A DNA stretch of 64,000 nucleotides, from positions 96,001 through 160,000 of the IMG/VR virus record IMGVR_UViG_3300045988_167206; one strand, given 5' to 3'. The notes under the pieces are model-generated. The model was given only the letters and a program-made list of their open reading frames with translations. It was not told where the DNA came from and did no database searches. Of the stretch, positions 7,001 to 44,002 are shown piece after piece. Made by a program: the position numbers and the translations under genes. The first letter of the stretch is position 1. Each line of letters begins with the position of its first letter. This stretch comes from a virus.

Positions 7001-8966
7001 CGCTATCATGTTCTTGCTGCTGAATTTGTAATCTTTGAATCTCAGATTTTAAATTAGCTATTTTCCCGGAATCTCTTTGAGATTGTGGTTTTGTCATTTC
7101 AGCATATAATTTTTGTCTGTTAGATACTAAGGCAGCGGTAGTTTTAGCTGAATCCTGCTCTAAAGTTTCAAATTTAATACCAGTCCCAATTGTTGCACTC
7201 CAGGTGTTATTTGCCTGACTATAAGTTTGAGTCAAAGTATGAACTTTTCGATTTACATCTTTATATACTTTTGTAATTTTTTGACCATTACTAGCTGTTT
7301 TTTCGGCCAGTAATTGCATATCATCGAAGTTAGGAGTTCCTGGTACTGAAGGTAAAGTAGGATTTCCTGATGTTGGAGGAGTTGTTGGGAAAGTCGGAAT
7401 ATTTGAATTTTTTGAAGAATTAGATGCGACCGGTGTAGCAGGTATAGCTTTCAATCTTGGACCACGAGAAACTTTATATGCTAATTTTTCTTGTTTAGTA
7501 GCATCTTCCTGTGTGCGAGTTGTATCTTGCACAGCAATACCAAGTCTTTCGGCAGAATCAGCCATCTTATCCATATTTTCTGTGGTATTTCCTACAGTAG
7601 AAGCCACTACATTATTTATGTGATCTGTAGCTGTGTTAATAGTGTCTGCAGCTTTTTCTGCTTTTTTGGCTTGGGCAGTAGGAGATTTTTTACTATGGGT
7701 ACTTTTTTTAGAAGTCTGATTAGATTGGATAGCAGGTGTTTCTACAACTGGATTTCTAATAGCTTCTTCTAGACGAGGATAAGCTTCAGACCAAAATTTA
7801 CCATTTTCAGGATCATCTGATAAAGTTTGAATAGCAGTATCTAAATTTTTTAATTGCTCGCCTGATAGTCCGGTTCCACCTTTATTTTTATATACAACAA
7901 AATTTCTGAATAATTTTGCCAGCATAGTAGTGCTAAAATCATAAATACTTTTATCTCCACTTAAAACTTTTTCAAAATCTTTTTTTAAGATAGAAGAAGC
8001 TTCATCTGCTGTTACTGACGAGATATTTTTTAACATTTTATCTCTAGCACTAGATAAACTTTTATTTCCAGTTGTATTAAAGGCTTTGTCAGCTTTAATT
8101 TTCTGAGTAGCTTTACTTGTTTCAGTAGCAATAGTATTAATTCCATTCTGCATATTACTTATAGCAGCCTGAACCATATCTTCACTACCACTTTCAATAG
8201 CAGCCTGTAATGAATCAAGATCAAAAGCAGAAGCTATATAAGATTTAGAATCTTCTACAGAACTTTCTAATGTTTTACCTATTCCGATCAAGTTTTTATT
8301 ACCAGGTCTGGTTATATGGCTATCTTCTGGAATAGAATCTTTCATTTTACCAAAAAGAGCTTTGATATTTTTCTGATTTTGTTCATAAGTCAAAAGAAGT
8401 TTTTCCTGAGCTTTTACAGCTTGAATATAAGCAGCCATATCTGTAAAATCAGCGGTGTTAAGAGGTTGTGCATTTTCTTGCTGTGCTAACGCCCATTTTG
8501 TAGCTCTTGAATATTCATAGCGTTTTCTATATAATGCTTTATATTCATCAGAATCAACAGCCAGGGTTTTTGGCATTCCGTCACGAACACCTTTTATTTC
8601 ATTTGCATTTAATCTATATAAATTTGCCGGCAAAGTCTGAAAACTTGCATCATACCCACTTTTAACCGCTTTATTAATTATACTTTCTACTTGTTTGGCT
8701 TGAGCTGTAATTGCTTTTTTAGTAGAAGCAGAAAGAGAAGATTTACCAGTTGCTTCTATAATAGCTGGAATTTTTACAGTTGTCTTTTGTAATTTATCTA
8801 ATGCAGAAGTATCTGTCTTTAATTCAGCAGTTATTGTAGATTTCTTTCCGTCTAATTCATCAGCAGTGTTTTTTAATTCTAATAATTTTTCAATTGCTCT
8901 ATCAACAGCAGCGTCAGCATCAACGCCTACACGAACTCGTTTATCATATCCACTCATATTAATCAC
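4017..8966 (-). CDS. tail tape measure protein, exon 1 (about 1650 aa; long coiled-coil plus TP901-type core)
   Basis: 1653-aa ORF, Q/K/E-rich coiled coil. The C-terminal part (MDIYQIYANMN...AISAKVAERTREDGSSIGNAIKTI...LTDAQQAKIAFD) resembles the phage tape measure core. An in-frame stop lies 3 codons past the proposed 5' splice site. Confidence 0.85.
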
Positions 8967-8971
8967 CTACT

Positions 8972-9526
8972 TTATATATTTTGTAAAATTAAATCTCTAA
9001 AAAGATTCGCACACATTTCTTTATAATCAGATCCTTCTAAATATGCATCCACTCTAGGATCCACCATTTCAATTACAGATTGAGTTTTTATAGCAGGACT
9101 ACCCCATTTTGTATAAGCACTTATACCTGAGTTTGGTGTCGGCCATCTATATAAAAAAGATCCAGGAGAAGGATGCCCTGGACCACCGTTAGCTCCACCA
9201 TGATATCCTTCTGCAAAAAACATATGATCAAAAATATATTCGGGCGAAACACGATGTGTATCATCAATTAATGAAGCATCGGAATGCAATAGAATAAATT
9301 CACCGGACGCTTTTATTTTGTATGCATTCGCCATAGACCATGTACGAGAATAATATTTCGGTGAATATGAAGTATAATAAGCTTTTATGCACTCATCAAA
9401 AATATTTTTAAATTCATTTGCTACTATAGGAGCAACTTGTTCAGCAACTTGTTTTTCGAATTTTGGAATATCATTTTTAATTTTTCTTAAAGCTTTGATA
9501 ATTGCTTCAATTGAATATGCTCCCAT
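8972..9526 (-). CDS. hypothetical protein; position suggests a tail assembly protein
   Basis: ORF with GGAGGTG SD, immediately upstream of the tape measure gene. Confidence 0.55.
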   Translation of the reverse strand: MGAYSIEAIIKALRKIKNDIPKFEKQVAEQVAPIVANEFKNIFDECIKAYYTSYSPKYYSRTWSMANAYKIKASGEFILLHSDASLIDDTHRVSPEYIFDHMFFAEGYHGGANGGPGHPSPGSFLYRWPTPNSGISAYTKWGSPAIKTQSVIEMVDPRVDAYLEGSDYKEMCANLFRDLILQNI

Positions 9527-26965: not shown

Positions 26966-27214
26966 TTAAAGTTTCATTCCATCGGTTGCAGATCCAGAGA
27001 TTTCATCCAGATCAATAGTTTCTTCTGTTTTAGTAGTAGTAGATAAGTCAAAAGGCATATCTCCATAAGCCTTTTTAAAAATTTCATTGATGTCGATAAT
27101 TTCACCTGTACTATCAACAAGCTGATCATCTACCACATGTAGTCCTTTAAGTTTTCCATCGTATTTTACAGTTTTTTTTAATTCCATTATTTTTCTCCTT
27201 TTATTCCTTGACAT
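26966..27214 (-). CDS. hypothetical acidic protein (82 aa)
   Basis: ORF with SD; no family recognised. Confidence 0.5.
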   Translation of the reverse strand: MSRNKRRKIMELKKTVKYDGKLKGLHVVDDQLVDSTGEIIDINEIFKKAYGDMPFDLSTTTKTEETIDLDEISGSATDGMKL

Positions 27215-27269
27215 ATTGAAATAATCAATATAAAATGTTATTAGTGAAAGTTTACAATAAAATGTCTTA

Positions 27270-27903: not shown

Positions 27904-29349
27904 TTATAATGCAACAACCATATCTTTAACAGAAGCGACTACTTTAAATGTTTTATCTTCTTTTGATATGGCATCTTTCAAATCTTTTTTTAAACTATTT
28001 TTTGCTACTTCAGATCCATGTACTAAAATCAATTTTTCTGTATTAATTTTAGATCCATATGTAATAAGTTCATTTCGATTTGCATGACTTGAAAATGTTC
28101 CAAGCGATATACAATCTGCTTTATTTTCAACACCATCTCCACTGATCTTTATAATTTTGTTTTCCTTATAGTTTTTTATTCTATAAGACAAATAAGAGTT
28201 GTCGGATCCAGTGTATCCACTAAAAATAACCATACTATTTTCATCGCTGAGATATTCATGTAAATAAGATAAAATACGTCCGTTTGTACAAAATCCAGAA
28301 CTACTTAATATAATTTTAGGCCGATGATCTTTTACAATTGCCAAAGAGTCTTCTTTTTCACGAATAAAATGAACTTTATTCCATCCTACAACTTTATTCC
28401 ATAGTTTTAACTCTTCTTCAGATAAAAGAGTAGAGTATAAGTCACAAATATCACATGATAATATAGAATCAACTATAATATCGTAATTAAATGAAATATC
28501 ATGATAGATATTGTACAAATTAGTAAGAATTTCTTGAGTCCTACTAAAACTAAAGCATGGCATAATAACAGATCCACCACGTTCAGTTACGGTATCAATC
28601 GCAGTTTTTAAATGATCCAAATCGAATTTTCGAGTCTTTTTATTTATTCGTCCTGGTTCTCCATATGTAGATTCCATAATTGTAATTTTGTTAAAATCTG
28701 TTGGAATTTCTGTATTATGAACATAATGATTTTTGGTATTTAAAGAACCAATATCAGAAGTGTATAAAATAGATTTTGAAACACCATTTTGATCTCGAAG
28801 CGTAAGCTGAAGCTGTCTAGCTCCAACACAATGACTATTCTCATACCATTTAAAAGAAACAATATCGTCAAGAATATACTGTATATGTAACTCATCATAT
28901 TCAACAATATATTTCAAAGTATTCATAACATCATTTTCTTCATAGATAGGAGAGTAGTTTCGTTTATATTTAAATGATAAGGCGTTTGCTTCACTAAATA
29001 AAATAAAAGCACAGTTATAAAGTAAAGGCTTCATAAGTTGTGCAGTAGCGTGTGAAGCGATAATTTTTCCAGTAAATCCTTCTTTAACTAATCTTGGTAG
29101 CAACCCAATATGATCAACATGAGTATGGCCAACAAACACATAATCAATTTCAGAAGGCTTAAAAGGAAATTTGGCAGAGTTTATATTATATGATTCAAGA
29201 TAATTGTTATTTTGGTAAAGACCGCATTCCAATAAAATCTTTTTTCCATTAAACTTAATATAAATACAACTGCCGGTAACATCGTTGGCATTTTGTCCAA
29301 TTAAATAAATGCCATCGTCTTTTTTCTTTTTGCTGATATCCAACACCAA
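27904..29349 (-). CDS. beta-CASP metallo-beta-lactamase-fold nuclease (RNase J/CPSF-like)
   Basis: HxHxDH motif (VGHTHVDHIG), a C-terminal SSHANRNEL beta-CASP His motif, and the typical 481-aa size. Confidence 0.8.
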   Translation of the reverse strand: MVLDISKKKKDDGIYLIGQNANDVTGSCIYIKFNGKKILLECGLYQNNNYLESYNINSAKFPFKPSEIDYVFVGHTHVDHIGLLPRLVKEGFTGKIIASHATAQLMKPLLYNCAFILFSEANALSFKYKRNYSPIYEENDVMNTLKYIVEYDELHIQYILDDIVSFKWYENSHCVGARQLQLTLRDQNGVSKSILYTSDIGSLNTKNHYVHNTEIPTDFNKITIMESTYGEPGRINKKTRKFDLDHLKTAIDTVTERGGSVIMPCFSFSRTQEILTNLYNIYHDISFNYDIIVDSILSCDICDLYSTLLSEEELKLWNKVVGWNKVHFIREKEDSLAIVKDHRPKIILSSSGFCTNGRILSYLHEYLSDENSMVIFSGYTGSDNSYLSYRIKNYKENKIIKISGDGVENKADCISLGTFSSHANRNELITYGSKINTEKLILVHGSEVAKNSLKKDLKDAISKEDKTFKVVASVKDMVVAL

Positions 29350-29371: not shown

Positions 29372-29584
29372 TTAAAAACGAAAATCTTGTTTGTTTTTGC
29401 TTTTATAAAGATCAGTCTGGTGTCTGGATTTTCTATAATCATTTAGAAGCTGCACACTTCTATATCGAGTAGTTAACCAGTATTTCTTTCCTCTACTTTT
29501 ATGAGTTTTACTTGTAACGTGTACATCGAATCCTCGTCCTTTTGAACGTAGATATTCTGCTTCTTTTGAAGTAATAGTAATCAA
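29372..29584 (-). CDS. small basic protein (70 aa)
   Basis: TTG start behind GTGAGGA. K/R-rich, possibly nucleic-acid binding. Confidence 0.5.
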   Translation of the reverse strand: MITITSKEAEYLRSKGRGFDVHVTSKTHKSRGKKYWLTTRYRSVQLLNDYRKSRHQTDLYKSKNKQDFRF

Positions 29585-29628
29585 ATTTATTTCCTCACTT
29601 TTAAATTATTTCTCCAATCAGGAGATAA

Positions 29629-29711
29629 TGGGAAGTGATGGAGTTGAACCACCCGAGTCTTTCGACAACAGATTTACAGTCTGCCCCGCTACCCCTACGG
29701 TATAACTTCCC
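29629..29711 (-). tRNA. tRNA-Tyr(GTA): tRNA-Tyr (GTA), class II
   Basis: Acceptor GGGAAGT/ACTTCCC, anticodon loop CTGTAAA, long variable arm, T loop TTCAACT. Confidence 0.85.
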
Positions 29712-29859
29712 TTGTTTTCTTTACTTTTTCATCTTGGCTGAGGATTTGTGCCCTCCAACCAAAGATATAGTCTGTGTACTTTAGACTGCCATTTACTTTA
29801 CACTCTAAATGGTCAAAACGTAACCGAGGCTGCTGGCGCGACCAGTGCATGTCAGTTAA

Positions 29860-29931
29860 CACACCCTCAAGGACTCGAACCCTGTTCTACGGTTTTGGAG
29901 ACCGTCATAATACCACATATACCAAAGGTGC
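29860..29931 (-). tRNA. tRNA-Trp(CCA): tRNA-Trp (CCA)
   Basis: Anticodon stem ACGGT/ACCGT with loop CTCCAAA; T arm CAGGG-TTCGAGT-CCTTG. Confidence 0.8.
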
Positions 29932-29941
29932 AAAAAAATAA

Positions 29942-30023
29942 CGCCGTGCACACGATTCGAACGTGCAAGTCCTTTCAGACCAACAGTTTTCAAGACTGCT
30001 CCCTCACCACCCGGACACACGGC
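29942..30023 (-). tRNA. tRNA-Ser(TGA): tRNA-Ser (TGA), class II
   Basis: Acceptor GCCGTGT/GCACGGC, loop CTTGAAA, long variable arm, T arm GCACG-TTCGAAT-CGTGT. Confidence 0.8.
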
Positions 30024-30030
30024 ATAATAA

Positions 30031-30103
30031 AGCTGAAATAGAGACTTGAACTCTAAACCTGCTGATTACAAATCAGCTGCTCTGCCAATTGAGCTATTCC
30101 AGC
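30031..30103 (-). tRNA. tRNA-Thr(TGT): tRNA-Thr (TGT)
   Basis: GCTGGAATAGCTCAATTGGCAGAGC..., anticodon loop TTTGTAA, T loop TTCAAGT. Confidence 0.85.
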
Positions 30104-30169
30104 AAAATCCGTCTTTCCGGATTGTCAGACCGAGATACCAGTCATTTACTAATTAAATTTTAAACTTGC

Positions 30170-30198
30170 TTGACAAAAATATCCAATAATGGTATTAT
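30170..30198 (+). promoter_or_regulatory. near-consensus sigma-A/sigma-70 promoter firing antisense to the tRNA operon
   Basis: TTGACA (30170-30175), 17-nt spacer, TATTAT (30193-30198). Confidence 0.7.
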
Positions 30199-30360
30199 CC
30201 CATTCGTTAGAGGTCGAGAATCCCAAAAGGATTCATAGGAAGATAGTGCAAACTGGACTCCGTGGTAAACCAAGCAATATACAACGGTTATTATACGGCC
30301 GCCTTTATGGGCAGATTTTAGCTCATGTGCCTCCAATCGGTAGGAGAGGAGGTTTTTACT

Positions 30361-30441
30361 ATGAATGATTATATTACATATATTATTCTAGGACTTGATG
30401 CACTCGTATGGGTGCTGAAGGTTATTAAAACATTTTGTTAA
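30361..30441 (+). CDS. 26-aa hydrophobic peptide MNDYITYIILGLDALVWVLKVIKTFC (type I toxin-like or small membrane protein)
   Basis: GGAGG SD 8 nt upstream of the ATG, one predicted TM helix with a basic C-terminus, its own promoter and terminator. Below the ORF-track length cutoff. Confidence 0.55.
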   Translation: MNDYITYIILGLDALVWVLKVIKTFC

Positions 30442-30500
30442 TTTCTTGTTGTTGAGCTTGGCGGGATAATAATTCCATTATTGGATTAATCATAGTAGTA

Positions 30501-30537
30501 GAAGCTGCATCCTGCAGCTTCTTTCTTTGTGTTTTTT
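30501..30537 (+). terminator. rho-independent terminator of the mini-ORF transcript
   Basis: 9-bp stem GAAGCTGCA/TGCAGCTTC, 3-nt loop, then TTTCTTTGTGTTTTTT. Confidence 0.8.
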
Positions 30538-30632
30538 GATATGCTCCCAATCTAAAAGACCTGAGGTCTCCCAGGAAGGATTTTCACCTTCGAGTTCCCA
30601 GCATGGTGGGCGGTAACTGTTCATATCTTTAA

Positions 30633-30717
30633 CGCAAAGCAGAGTATTCGAAACTCAATCCAATAAAGGATCGCATGACTTAGCAGGTCAGCTCCGTGCC
30701 TCACGGATTTACTTTGC
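30633..30717 (-). tRNA. tRNA-Ser(GCT): tRNA-Ser (GCT), class II
   Basis: Acceptor GCAAAGT/GCTTTGC, D stem TCCG/CGGA, loop CTGCTAA, variable arm ATCC/GGAT, T loop TTCGAAT. Confidence 0.75.
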
Positions 30718-30785
30718 AATTTTAAAGGAGAGGGAGGATAAAACCTCCCCAGAAAAAAGAAAGAGGTAGTAACTATAACAAATCA

Positions 30786-30815
30786 ACAAAAAAATATTGA
30801 GTGTAAAACACTCAG
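30786..30815 (-). terminator. rho-independent terminator immediately 3' of tRNA-Leu(TAA)
   Basis: Minus strand: TGAGTG-TTTTA-CACTCA followed by ATATTTTTTTG. Confidence 0.65.
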
Positions 30816-30901
30816 TGCTATCTGTGGGACTCGAACCCACACTTCGTGTTTCAGAAACAGGATTTTAAGTCCTGTGCGCCTGCCAGTTACGCCAAGATAG
30901 C
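30816..30901 (-). tRNA. tRNA-Leu(TAA): tRNA-Leu (TAA), class II
   Basis: Acceptor GCTATCT/AGATAGC, A73, loop CTTAAAA, 17-nt variable arm, T arm GTGGG-TTCGAGT-CCCAC. Confidence 0.85.
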
Positions 30902-30912
30902 ATTTATTTATA

Positions 30913-30985
30913 AGCACTATATGAGAGTCGAACTCATATCATCTGATTGGAAGTCAGATATCATGTTCCGTTAAACCAATAGTGC
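30913..30985 (-). tRNA. tRNA-Gly(TCC): tRNA-Gly (TCC)
   Basis: Acceptor GCACTAT/ATAGTGC, loop CTTCCAA, T loop TTCGACT. Confidence 0.85.
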
Positions 30986-31016
30986 ATCGGCAGGGAAGCG
31001 GAATTCTGCCTTCTAA

Positions 31017-31036
31017 TTCTCTTATTACCTACTAAA
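31017..31036 (-). repeat. 20-nt spacer block, copy 1
   Basis: Plus-strand TTCTCTTATTACCTACTAAA; 18 of 20 nt identical to 31267-31286, exactly 250 nt away. Confidence 0.6.
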
Positions 31037-31140
31037 TTATAAAGAGCCATGGTTTTATAAAATTTCGGATCCTCTGTAGAAAGAGGATAACATTCTTTAT
31101 AATTACTCATTCTGAGATTATACTTAGTACTTCCCCAAAT

Positions 31141-31209
31141 AGCGGAGGCTGGATTTGAACCAACGTCTCTAGAGCATGAATCTAGCAAGGAACCGCTCCT
31201 CTACTCCGC
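31141..31209 (-). tRNA. tRNA-Met(CAT): tRNA with CAT anticodon (elongator Met or Ile2), short D loop
   Basis: Acceptor GCGGAGT/CCTCCGC with two mismatched inner pairs, anticodon stem CTAGA/TCTAG with loop TTCATGC, T loop TTCAAAT. Only 69 nt long, with G at position 37. Confidence 0.65.
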
Positions 31210-31266
31210 GTTATTCGTATATTTATGGTAGAACTATATCTATGTCGTCTTACAACATACAGCATG

Positions 31267-31286
31267 TTCACTTATTGCCTACTAAA
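31267..31286 (-). repeat. 20-nt spacer block, copy 2
   Basis: Plus-strand TTCACTTATTGCCTACTAAA. Confidence 0.6.
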
Positions 31287-31390
31287 GATTTCGTACTTAA
31301 ACCCGATCAGGAATATAATAAAATCACTCGGTTAACACATGCAATTATATTCCGTGTACCTATCTACACCAAACTTTCAGGCACCATAGT

Positions 31391-31462
31391 TGGAATGACG
31401 GGATTTGAACCCACAACGTCTTGGTCCCAAACCAAGCGGACTGCCAAGTTGTCCTACATTCC
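31391..31462 (-). tRNA. tRNA-Pro(TGG): tRNA-Pro (TGG)
   Basis: Anticodon stem CTTGG/CCAAG, loop TTTGGGA, T loop TTCAAAT. Confidence 0.85.
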
Positions 31463-31471
31463 AAAATTAAG

Positions 31472-31544
31472 CTCTCCCAGCAGGACTCGAACCTGCGACA
31501 CAACGGTTAACGGCCGTTTGCTCTACCAACTGAGCTATAAGAGA
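31472..31544 (-). tRNA. tRNA-Asn(GTT): tRNA-Asn (GTT) with C instead of U at position 33
   Basis: TCTCTTATAGCTCAGTTGGTAGAGC..., anticodon stem AACGG/CCGTT, loop CCGTTAA, T loop TTCGAGT. Confidence 0.75.
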
Positions 31545-31583
31545 ATGTAATCAGGGTAGGAAAGTATCCTACCCTATATTTAG

Positions 31584-31859
31584 TTACGCATTTACTGCTT
31601 CTTTGATCTGTTTTCCAAATTTACATCTTACAGCATTTTTAGCATCGACCATTACAGTTTCACCTGTTCTTGGATTACGAGCTGTACGAGCATCCTTATG
31701 TACTGTAGAAAGTGTAACGCCATCCATCAGTTTAACCTCATCGCCTTTTACAAGTGTATCAAATGTAACTGCCTGGATAGCTTCCATAACGGACTTAATA
31801 TCCTTCTGTGTAAATCCTGTCTTTGTTGCAACTTCTTTAATCATTTCTACTTTGTTCAT
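31584..31859 (-). CDS. hup: HU/IHF-family DNA-binding protein
   Basis: MNKVEMIKEVATKTGFTQKD...ARTARNPRTGETVMVDAKNAVRCKFGKQIKEAVN is a near-canonical HU sequence. Confidence 0.9.
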   Translation of the reverse strand: MNKVEMIKEVATKTGFTQKDIKSVMEAIQAVTFDTLVKGDEVKLMDGVTLSTVHKDARTARNPRTGETVMVDAKNAVRCKFGKQIKEAVNA

Positions 31860-37887: not shown

Positions 37888-38784
37888 CTAAACAAATACT
37901 AATTCGTTAATATAATCTCTGCCTTTGCCTTTAAATACCGGAATATTATTATCAATGGTCCAATAGGATCGTTGTGTTTCACATCTAATTTCTCCAATTC
38001 TTTTGTTATCATCTTTAACAGGTTTCCATCCTTCATGATTTTCATAAGTTTTAATACAACAGAATCCGCGTTGTTTGCCAATTTTAAAATCATTATCAAA
38101 ATCAATATTTTTCTGCTCATGTAACATTTCTTTAATGGCAGCAGTACTTTTATTCTGTAATTCCTTTTGTGTAAAATTTGCCTGGCCAACCATCTGAATA
38201 GAATTACGAATACAATCTTGCTGCCGCCAGAAAAAATAATTTGCGATCTCATCTTTAGAGAGATTAAAACACCTTGAATCAAAACCTCTGTATTTAAATT
38301 CAAGCGCATTCCATAAACGTTGCATATATTCAATATCGGATTTTTCTTTATCTGTTAAATCTTTATAAGTTCCACCCATATCATAATCCGGAATGTTTCT
38401 ATATCCATATCTTTCAATATTTTCCTTAAACATTTCTTCAAAAAATGTTGTAGCAAGAGCAGCAGAAGTGCTGACTATTTTCTGAATTCTATTATCAAAC
38501 CAAGGCTGAGTATCAAAATTTTTATAATCAATAAGAAGTAATGAAATTTCATCAGACTGAGTATATGCAAGAACACAATTCTGCACATTCTGACACATAT
38601 ATAATGCAGTCTGTTGCATAGTATCAATTAAAATATCATCAAATGGTTTCCTGAATCCTCTTGTAAAACTATGGAAGCTGCGGCCATCAAGTCTAATAAT
38701 TACCGGTAATCTTCGGATTAACTTTTGATCCGTAATCTTTTCGTAGTCTTTCATTCTAATATCTAAATCTGTATATGCTGGCAT
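37888..38784 (-). CDS. Thg1-like protein (tRNA-His guanylyltransferase family 3'-5' nucleotidyltransferase)
   Basis: VIIRLDGRSFHSF, AYTQSDEISLLL, GFDSRCF and YFFWRQQDCIRNS match the Thg1/TLP catalytic core blocks. Confidence 0.85.
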   Translation of the reverse strand: MPAYTDLDIRMKDYEKITDQKLIRRLPVIIRLDGRSFHSFTRGFRKPFDDILIDTMQQTALYMCQNVQNCVLAYTQSDEISLLLIDYKNFDTQPWFDNRIQKIVSTSAALATTFFEEMFKENIERYGYRNIPDYDMGGTYKDLTDKEKSDIEYMQRLWNALEFKYRGFDSRCFNLSKDEIANYFFWRQQDCIRNSIQMVGQANFTQKELQNKSTAAIKEMLHEQKNIDFDNDFKIGKQRGFCCIKTYENHEGWKPVKDDNKRIGEIRCETQRSYWTIDNNIPVFKGKGRDYINELVFV

Positions 38785-43237: not shown

Positions 43238-43972
43238 ATGAGCAAAAAAGGATTAAAACTGTATACAAAACAGTGTAAAGCATACAATACAATTTTTGAA
43301 GGCTTTAAAGTTCCCGTTGGTGCATTTTATGGACGTATTTTAGTACCATATACAGACGGTATTTATCGCAGTTCGGATTATGTTTTTTGGGTATGTGATG
43401 ACCCAAAAAGTATTAAAACAGGTATGCTTTCCATTCATATTATGAAACGCGAATGGGGTAATAATACTATTACTCGCGATATTCGCAAGACTACATGGCA
43501 CGATATTAAAGTAGGAAAAAATCATCCAATTTATCAAACTGTATTAACAGAATGCTATAAACTTGGTGGAATTCCTGTAGTTAAAACCTTTAAAAATCCG
43601 CAAATTTATGTTAATCGTGTATACACTGCACTAGCACATGAATATAGCTACCGTAAACATCCACAGCCACAGTCACGTTGTTATAAACAAGCACAAGTTG
43701 ACGGTAAAAATTGGGATATTTCTTGGGAAGAAAACATTCAACCAATGCAGGATATTGACGGTTATAATTACAATGGTATGCCTGTACAATATAATTCTGA
43801 TAACACCAAACAAGCTCCTTTTACCTCTTTTGAAGGATTTACCGACACGTATGAAGCTCATAGACATGATGGTATGAAGGTTAATCAGACTAAATGCAGA
43901 CCTGAAAAACAACGTAATAATAATGCCATTATATCTATAAAAATCAACGGTGTTAATATTAACGTTAAATAA
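43238..43972 (+). CDS. hypothetical protein (244 aa)
   Basis: ORF with AAGGGG SD. Confidence 0.65.
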   Translation: MSKKGLKLYTKQCKAYNTIFEGFKVPVGAFYGRILVPYTDGIYRSSDYVFWVCDDPKSIKTGMLSIHIMKREWGNNTITRDIRKTTWHDIKVGKNHPIYQTVLTECYKLGGIPVVKTFKNPQIYVNRVYTALAHEYSYRKHPQPQSRCYKQAQVDGKNWDISWEENIQPMQDIDGYNYNGMPVQYNSDNTKQAPFTSFEGFTDTYEAHRHDGMKVNQTKCRPEKQRNNNAIISIKINGVNINVK

Positions 43973-43973
43973 T

Positions 43974-44002
43974 TTGACATATATTCACTAACAGTATATT
44001 AT
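43974..44002 (+). promoter_or_regulatory. sigma-A/sigma-70-type promoter
   Basis: TTGACA, 17-nt spacer, TATTAT. Same architecture as the promoter at 30170. Confidence 0.65.

Follow-up and report, generated by a model that had tools for sequence, protein, structure and literature searches.

A short transcription unit lies opposite the tRNA genes of a large phage, and the question it raises is whether it is a type I toxin-antitoxin locus. The DNA concerned is a stretch of 64,000 nucleotides (positions 96,001 to 160,000 of the IMG/VR virus record IMGVR_UViG_3300045988_167206), called the window below, and the unit, called the cassette, occupies its positions 30157-30489 and is read on the plus strand. 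A preliminary description of the window had proposed that a promoter, a structured leader, a 26-codon open reading frame (ORF), and a terminator form a complete unit at this place, transcribed antisense to the tRNA operon. All of these signals were recovered where they had been placed, and the unit is conserved, with covariation, in 10 distinct sequence variants from three clades, which argues against an arrangement by chance. We propose that the cassette is a new type I-toxin-like moron of ~330 bp, inserted between the tRNA genes of a large phage of gut Clostridia, a reading that we consider to have about an even chance of being correct.

The cassette is present or absent between conserved tRNA genes

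In alignments with two related loci (L001 and L004), positions 30157-30489 behave as a unit, and the empty site carries a single ATTAA. The closest relatives, as judged from a neighboring gene (L001-L003; 91% protein identity), have no cassette and keep both flanks together with the terminator hairpin. The cassette is absent also from ~40 other relatives. Clade A comprises the window and L093, and clade B comprises L004, L005, L045, L056, L092, L094-L096, L098, and L107; the two clades are ~87% identical and occupy the same site, between tRNA-Thr(tgt) and a tRNA-Ser(GCT)-like gene. Clade C (L042 and L097) is ~72% identical and lies in the spacer between tRNA-Leu(taa) and tRNA-Gly(tcc), which measures only 8 nt in relatives without the cassette. 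Homology between the clades spans the stretch from the -35 box to just beyond a GGCGGG motif. Every copy found is antisense to tRNA genes. There is one copy per genome, and an nhmmer search over 169 loci revealed no divergent second copies or paralogues.

The terminator had been described as a 9-bp GC-rich hairpin followed by a T-run at 30501-30537. It is present and heads the list of terminator-like structures for the 25-35-kb region (-14.7 kcal/mol, z = -3.7), but its 10-bp stem has five G-C pairs and is not especially GC-rich. Clade C has no obvious terminator. Because the hairpin is present in the cassette-less L001-L003 and absent in clade C, it is part of the insertion site and not of the cassette core.

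An 18-nt inverted repeat (30181-30198 and 30469-30486, 94% complementary) joins the promoter core to an AT-rich tail (30466-30486), of which positions 30469-30486 form the right arm; the left arm lies 24 nt inside the boundary. Flanking ATTAA repeats are confined to the site used by clades A and B; the clade C site has no repeat. A transposable element, including a miniature inverted-repeat transposable element, was rejected, as terminal inverted repeats with a target-site duplication are not found at every copy. The inverted repeat is significant in clade A only, and the cassette is therefore not a classical transposon. What the alignments reveal is a promoter-gene-(terminator) unit that is present or absent between conserved flanks and that occupies two spacers, as morons do. 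To judge from this distribution, the tRNA array is a mosaic in which the cassette, apparently a moron, is exchanged by recombination.

The relatives comprised 57 related loci from IMG/VR, on contigs of mostly 90-180 kb, and extra copies of the cassette were found in human-gut metagenome assemblies. The carriers are related human-gut phages of ~170 kb. One clade B copy lies within a 499-kb scaffold of Ruminococcus sp. AM36-2AA, a cultured isolate, indicating that the host is a gut member of the Clostridia. In pattern scans of public collections, every true match fell within clades A, B, and C, and no further clade appeared. Four extra IMG/VR matches, 69 genome matches, and ~50 matches to single 16-mers were judged by eye and by nhmmer to be due to chance. 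Against 50,697 phage records, a blastn search in distant mode with 30104-30814 gave no match, and a megablast search with the 20-40-kb region matched only tRNAs. The phage thus has no counterpart among deposited phage genomes. A look-up of the neighboring gene returned one 2.2-kb contig only.

The cassette has a host-type promoter

The promoter proposed at 30170-30198 (TTGACA-17-TATTAT) is present and carries in addition an extended -10 TG. It is of the sigma-A/sigma-70 type, scores 11/12 plus the extended -10, and has a predicted transcription start at ~30205-30206. With a cut-off of at least 11/12, or 10/12 plus TG, such sites are rare, the 64-kb window having seven on its two strands. The promoter at 43974(+), at the start of a plus-strand gene block, has the same two hexamers as the cassette promoter. 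All three clades share the -35 TTGACA, the TG, and the spacer length of 17 nt, and their -10 boxes read TATTAT, TACGAT, or TATTCT. A likeness of the promoter core to 43917-43932 was out of register and was judged to be chance.

The cassette had also been said to hold the only plus-strand signals in a 40-kb minus-strand block. This was wrong, as a second conserved sigma-A-type promoter is located at 27208-27236(+). The latter (TTGACA-17-TAAAAT) is a near-consensus, host-type promoter inside the minus-strand block. It occupies the short gap that separates an 82-aa ORF from the gene for a ClpP-like protease, to which its transcript would be antisense. It has the same position in all relatives and scores 12/12 in L001-L003.

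The small ORF is conserved and encodes a hydrophobic peptide

Conservation of the peptide in related phages, on which the preliminary proposal depended, was borne out by the alignments, in which the ORF is the sole reading frame kept in all three clades. A 58-aa minus-strand ORF that runs across the cassette in the window is not conserved. The peptides read MNDYITYIILGLDALVWVLKVIKTFC in clade A, MDKYITYIILGLDALSWVLRVIKTFC in clade B, and MITYVILGLKLLTVALEIIKTFC in clade C. The spacing between the Shine-Dalgarno sequence (SD) and the ATG is 8 nt in the window and 8-10 nt across the clades. The clade C ORF is 9 nt shorter at the N-terminal end, in frame, and keeps the SD, the start, and the stop. 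Between clades A and C, the leader is 73% identical and the ORF 69%. The ratio of nonsynonymous to synonymous change (pN/pS) amounts to 0.36-0.49 in comparisons between clades and to 0.08 for the pair of clade C copies. On this evidence from sequence comparison, the ORF is coding.

The peptide has 23-26 residues, a grand average of hydropathy of 0.97-1.71, and one helix with a narrow polar face. On a helical wheel, Thr-6, Asp-13, Lys-20, Lys-23, and Thr-24 fall within ~100 degrees. In clade C, Asp-13 is replaced by lysine and Lys-20 by glutamate. The two charges, spaced as i and i+7, swap together, which fits a membrane helix with a polar seam. A tblastn search with the peptide against the same phage records found nothing, and no profile of the known type I toxin families (Fst/Ldr, Hok, TisB, Ibs, ShoB, TxpA/BsrG, and others) matched it. 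A Pox_A9 match from Pfam to the clade C peptide (E 0.082) was below threshold and was attributed to chance.

The leader folds back on the ribosome-binding site

The proposed leader of ~155 nt with a GAATCC/GGATTC hairpin was found, with a length of ~156 nt. An RNAalifold consensus of nine sequences provides its fold, in which 96% of the cells are paired, as compared with 33-47% with slid partners (Table 1). Compensatory changes were noticed in six pairs, two each in hairpins P2 and P3 and two in a hairpin within the ORF. The multiloop contains a 22-nt block that is identical in all copies, 16 nt of which are unpaired.

The preliminary description held that a CCTCC at 30330-30334 is positioned to sequester the GGAGG at 30348-30352. 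Our results agree with this claim. The anti-SD/SD hairpin has a predicted energy of -12.0 to -12.4 kcal/mol across the three clades (z = -2.8 in the window), and the pairing shows no variation in nine of nine sequences. In the partition-function model, the probability that the SD is unpaired is <0.01 for the window copy and <0.03 for all three clades. It stays <0.03 in 3'-truncated forms and rises to 0.26-0.49 only when the anti-SD is removed. In the model, therefore, activation would need 5' processing or capture of the anti-SD. Trimming of the 3' end was rejected as the activating step because the anti-SD hairpin persists after 3' truncation.

In the consensus, two long-range helices enclose the start codon and the ORF. 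TGAGCT (30453-30458), in an invariant block that follows the ORF, pairs with AGCTCA (30320-30325) in the leader, and TGGCGGG (30459-30465) pairs with 30203-30209. The post-ORF block is also complementary to CCAAGC and CCGCC in the leader, which are alternative partners. The variation within these helices consists of C/U opposite G, where the minus strand would have A-C mismatches. As such changes are tolerated on the plus strand only, they support the strand and not the helix itself.

These features invite a different reading. The leader could be an uncatalogued sensor, such as a riboswitch, an RNA thermometer, or a protein or RNA target, that opens the SD. The peptide would then be nontoxic, a small membrane protein with a modulating effect on a transporter or membrane complex of the host. 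A multiloop with covarying hairpins around a largely unpaired invariant block resembles an aptamer, SD sequestration is the usual output of a translational riboswitch, and no antitoxin was found. We nevertheless regard a sensor as unlikely. The preliminary description had named a match of the leader to a known riboswitch as a rival to its own proposal, and none was obtained. Rfam 15 gave no leader family at gathering scores (window and five relatives), and with E relaxed to 10, the region 29500-31700 yielded only tRNAs and noise. A PrrF match (24 bits against a gathering score of 90) was noise. Across the three clades, we found no conserved, mutually exclusive helix that links the multiloop domain to the anti-SD, and the candidate for such a helix, a GGAGG-like arm of P3, is not kept in clade A. 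Furthermore, riboswitches are not built with a leader that pairs with sequence beyond the ORF, and the family is restricted to one phage group.

Table 1. Positions of the cassette features and of the adjacent tRNA genes in the window
Feature	Position	Strand	Details
Insertion relative to the empty site of L001-L003	30152-30489		ATTAA repeats at 30152-30156 and 30485-30489, ~333 bp between
Sigma-A/sigma-70-type promoter	30170-30198	+	TTGACA 30170-30175, 17-nt spacer, TG 30190-30191, TATTAT 30193-30198
Structured 5' leader	30203-30360	+	RNAalifold consensus, nine sequences; ~156 nt
5'-terminal strand and its partner	30203-30209 and 30459-30465	+	Long-range helix
Multiloop-closing helix	30212-30216 and 30296-30300	+	GGTCG/CGGCC
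Hairpin P2	30218-30223 and 30229-30234	+	GAATCC/GGATTC; inside multiloop
Variable hairpin P3	30238-30261	+	Inside multiloop
Invariant 22-nt block	30262-30283	+	GTGGTAAACCAAGCAATATACA (RNA: GUGGUAAACCAAGCAAUAUACA); multiloop; contains a 3-bp UGG/CCA hairpin
Small hairpin, then AGCTCA, then anti-SD	30301-30312, 30320-30325, 30329-30334	+	Anti-SD is GCCTCC
Anti-SD/SD hairpin	30329-30353	+	GCCTCC 30329-30334 pairs with GGAGGT 30348-30353
26-codon ORF	30361-30441	+	MNDYITYIILGLDALVWVLKVIKTFC; ATG 30361, TAA 30439-30441
Invariant post-ORF block	30450-30465	+	TGTTGAGCTTGGCGGG; pairs with leader AGCTCA and 5' end
AT-rich tail, weak candidate antisense promoter	30466-30486	-	-10-like TATTAT 30471-30466; TGGAATTAT 30477-30469
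Intrinsic terminator	30500-30537	+	10-bp stem 30500-30522, 3-nt loop, then TTCTTTGTGTTTTTT
tRNA-Thr(tgt)	30031-30103	-	Immediately downstream of cassette on tRNA strand
tRNA-Ser(GCT)-like gene	30632-30718	-	Upstream of cassette on tRNA strand; atypical D arm

Transcripts of the tRNA strand are plausible antisense partners

A type I locus needs an antisense RNA, and we looked for its source on the minus strand. Just 3' of GGCGGG, and at one shared alignment position, each clade has a -10-like hexamer (TATTAT or TGGAATTAT in clade A, AATTAT in clade B, and TAATAT in clade C) with no credible -35. At the 5' edge of the cassette, clades A and B and L042 have an outward-facing, promoter-like TCGACC-17/18-TAnCAT. 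The site consists of bases complementary to conserved leader and -10 positions, and its score is only 8-9/12; we keep it as a caveat. Within the window, no trans-encoded antisense RNA or partial second copy was found above chance.

Another possible source is read-through of the tRNA precursor. According to the preliminary description, any read-through tRNA precursor from tRNA-Ser(GCT) to tRNA-Thr would be perfectly complementary to the cassette mRNA. This holds by geometry, and in clade C it is forced. With an empty spacer of only 8 nt, the co-transcript of tRNA-Gly and tRNA-Leu must carry the full antisense, the exception being if the weak outward-facing site at the cassette edge is real. In the window, however, a transcript of the tRNA strand would meet terminator-like hairpins before it reaches the cassette; read-through into the cassette is therefore not a given and may be low. 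By analogy, transcripts of the tRNA strand are plausible as the antitoxin, especially in clade C.

This idea can be extended, in a form that we consider doubtful. In place of a dedicated small RNA, the repressor may be a spacer or leader that RNase P and RNase Z release from the phage's own tRNA precursor and that is perfectly complementary to the cassette along its whole length. Silencing would then last only while the tRNA operon continues to be transcribed. The array would have in the cassette an addiction or guard module; alternatively, the cassette would sense the shut-off of transcription. It would spread between phage genomes by recombination in the conserved tRNA flanks.

Weighing the type I reading

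The type I toxin-antitoxin reading is supported by the conserved hydrophobic ORF and the self-occluding design of the mRNA. Several findings weigh against it, and the first concerns the antitoxin. Inside the cassette, the minus strand has no promoter of at least 9/12 and no terminator; across the clades, we found neither a conserved antisense promoter nor an antisense RNA gene. Between tRNA-Leu(taa) and the cassette, the tRNA strand of the window has three terminator-like hairpins (30814-30798, 30750-30734, and 30575-30560). The preliminary description of one transmembrane helix with a basic tail was right about the helix, which is hydrophobic and conserved, but the C-terminal tail is hardly basic, having two lysines and a net side-chain charge of 0; in clade C, one of these lysines is glutamate. 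Both ORF differences in the near-identical copy L093 are nonsynonymous (I5L and K20N), and searches of Pfam, NCBIfam, and PADLOC at E up to 10 yielded no peptide family. As for the RNA, the long-range helices contain invariant bases and one-sided changes only, with no compensatory pairs. A cis-antisense mechanism has no need for the invariant, mostly single-stranded 22-nt block, which hints at a trans factor or ligand. Finally, only three independent clades are known.

If the cassette is nevertheless a type I-toxin-like moron, we infer from its promoter that host RNA polymerase with the housekeeping sigma factor would transcribe it opposite the tRNA genes. The mRNA of ~325 nt would encode an amphipathic transmembrane helix of 23-26 residues, presumably toxic, as its stripe of polar and charged residues (Thr-6, Asp-13, Lys-20, Lys-23, and Thr-24) has the design of small pore-forming, membrane-depolarizing type I toxins. 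On the nascent transcript, the SD would be captured at once by the anti-SD 14 nt upstream (-12 kcal/mol), and the mRNA would stay untranslated. The 5' end and AGCUCA would then pair with the invariant block just past the stop codon, closing the message. According to the folding model, translation would need removal or capture of the anti-SD, i.e. 5' processing as for tisB, dinQ, and zorO. By analogy with known loci, a complementary RNA from the tRNA strand may block or destroy the activated message, with read-through of the tRNA precursor or the weak promoter just 3' of the GGCGGG block as candidate sources.

The host-type promoter could instead point to an early effector peptide that the host polymerase makes at the outset of infection, that has no antitoxin, and that acts in host take-over, superinfection exclusion, or lysis timing. 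The fold would set its dose or timing, and later transcription of the tRNA strand or of late genes would shut it off convergently. The consensus promoter is of the same class as that at 43974(+), the antisense promoter at 27208 suggests that early antisense transcription is general, and the window contains no integrase gene. An SD that is >97% occluded, however, fits poorly with a promptly needed peptide. The cassette is dispensable in the closest relatives, and the copy in a 499-kb bacterial scaffold hints at carriage in the cell and not at a purely lytic life. We therefore hold an early effector to be quite improbable. That the RNA itself is the product, a regulatory or structural small RNA in which the 26-codon frame is incidental or secondary, is very improbable: the leader and the 3' block are conserved as much as the ORF or more, with both invariant blocks and the fold kept, and the tRNA arrays of relatives also host the large noncoding GOLLD RNA, but the SD, the ATG, the frame, the stop, and an in-frame indel are all conserved, the changes in the ORF are synonymous or conservative, two charges swap together, and the window has no complementary target elsewhere.

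If the type I reading is confirmed, the cassette would define a new family of type I-toxin-like peptides and mRNAs from uncultivated large phages of human-gut Clostridia, in which almost no small genes are annotated. Phage tRNA arrays would then host small antisense toxin cassettes besides homing endonuclease genes and GOLLD RNA. Should a tRNA precursor prove to be the antitoxin, a toxin and an RNA operon would be coupled in a new way. In its own right, the conserved 5' domain, which contains the invariant 22-nt block, merits study as an uncatalogued structured RNA. Because a clade B copy is present in the cultured Ruminococcus sp. AM36-2AA, the question is directly testable.

The tRNA array and the neighboring genes

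The window has 10 tRNA genes on its minus strand. The tRNA-Ser(GCT) gene named in the preliminary description is present, although below threshold at default settings; ARAGORN reports it with relaxed settings only, and it falls below the default ARAGORN and Rfam thresholds. Its cloverleaf has a "D arm" of 6 bp and 3 nt and is 80-84% conserved in every relative, with compensatory changes. Downstream of this gene, at 30560-30625(-), there are two conserved hairpins, CCCAC..GTGGG and GAAGG-UGAAAAUC-CCUUC, the second with a compensatory A-U to U-A change, and a terminator-like hairpin follows the pair. The two may be a small structured RNA. At 30720-30797(-), where most relatives have tRNA-Asp(gtc), this gene has been replaced or has decayed in the window, leaving only a 5' remnant and a GGGGAGG..CCTCCC hairpin. 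On the tRNA strand, tRNA-Thr is immediately preceded by a conserved hairpin, AATCCG-tctttc-CGGATT (30104-30131, +/-), which is also found in cassette-less relatives and may be a processing signal or a weak terminator.

The arrays of relatives contain other insertions. GOLLD RNA (RF02032, 182-194 bits) lies in the tRNA array of L008 (3645-4123), L042 (3447-3916), and L097 (2097-2569), and there is none in the window. L006 (reverse complement) has at 8468-9399 a 276-aa ORF that, by eye from its translation, resembles an HNH homing endonuclease. This HNH-like ORF is found between tRNA genes in a subset of relatives and adjoins a tRNA-like gene with a four-base anticodon call (ttat).

The neighboring genes include those for a terminase, a ClpP-like prohead protease, a tape-measure protein, an exonuclease, an HU-like protein, an RNase J/beta-CASP nuclease, and a Thg1-like tRNA-His guanylyltransferase. 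The RNase J/beta-CASP metallo-beta-lactamase nuclease (27904-29349, minus strand) and the Thg1-like guanylyltransferase (37888-38784, minus strand) flank the tRNA array, indicating that the phage brings its own enzymes for tRNA processing or repair. No integrase gene was found within the 64-kb window; Ant- and ParB-like genes are present and are not decisive as to whether the phage is temperate.

Comparison with known systems

Type I toxin mRNAs have been described by SD/anti-SD pairing, 5' stem-loops, a 3' terminator, and 5'-3' long-distance pairing (PMC8594479). The cassette shows each of these T1TAdb descriptors, with a terminator in clades A and B and long-range helices that have no compensatory support, and its small hydrophobic ORF is within the usual size of <60 aa.

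Phages of Clostridioides difficile commonly carry type I loci, which help to keep the prophage (PMC7699646); a type I toxin-antitoxin locus in a phage of the Clostridia is thus already known as such. The cassette resembles the C. difficile prophage loci CD0977.1/RCd11 and CD0956.2/RCd10 in being phage-borne in Clostridia and in having a sigma-A-type promoter, an AGGAGG-type ribosome-binding site 7-8 nt before the ATG, and a small hydrophobic peptide; a role in keeping the mobile element has been proposed for those loci (PMC7699646, PMC5961336). The C. difficile toxins, however, have 34-47 aa and a lysine-rich tail, whereas the peptide here has 23-26 aa, a nearly neutral tail, and no sequence similarity to them. 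Their convergent antitoxin RNA, which has its own promoter, has been mapped, whereas no dedicated antitoxin gene is evident here. Unlike those loci, the cassette lies antisense inside a tRNA gene array.

With aapA1/IsoA1 of Helicobacter pylori and hok/Sok, the cassette shares a membrane peptide of the 30-aa class and a primary transcript that is predicted to be inert by folding (PMC5416894, PMC6733600, PMC8594479). As in aapA1 and hok, an anti-SD would hide the SD during and after transcription, and 5'-3' pairing would close the message. In those mRNAs, 3' trimming frees the SD, whereas the anti-SD hairpin modeled here survives 3' truncation; there is no homology.

Another parallel is with tisB/IstR-1, dinQ/AgrB, and zorO/OrzO of Escherichia coli. 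These encode amphipathic transmembrane helices of 26-29 aa with a few charges on one face, and their primary mRNAs are inactive until 5' processing makes them translatable. A "charge zipper" has been suggested for TisB, and the swap of Asp-13/Lys-20 to lysine/glutamate fits such an interaction. In these systems, the antitoxin is a short RNA that is transcribed divergently and has a standby site as its target, and the loci are SOS-regulated, chromosomal, and found in Proteobacteria. The cassette peptide has no sequence similarity to the three toxins.

As an insertion, the cassette is like phage morons and like other insertions in tRNA arrays (homing endonuclease genes and GOLLD RNA): it has its own promoter, a terminator in clades A and B, and is present or absent between conserved genes. 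"Moron" is in this sense a structural label and not a function. The cassette differs from the other array insertions in lying on the strand opposite the array and in owing part of its terminator context to the insertion site.

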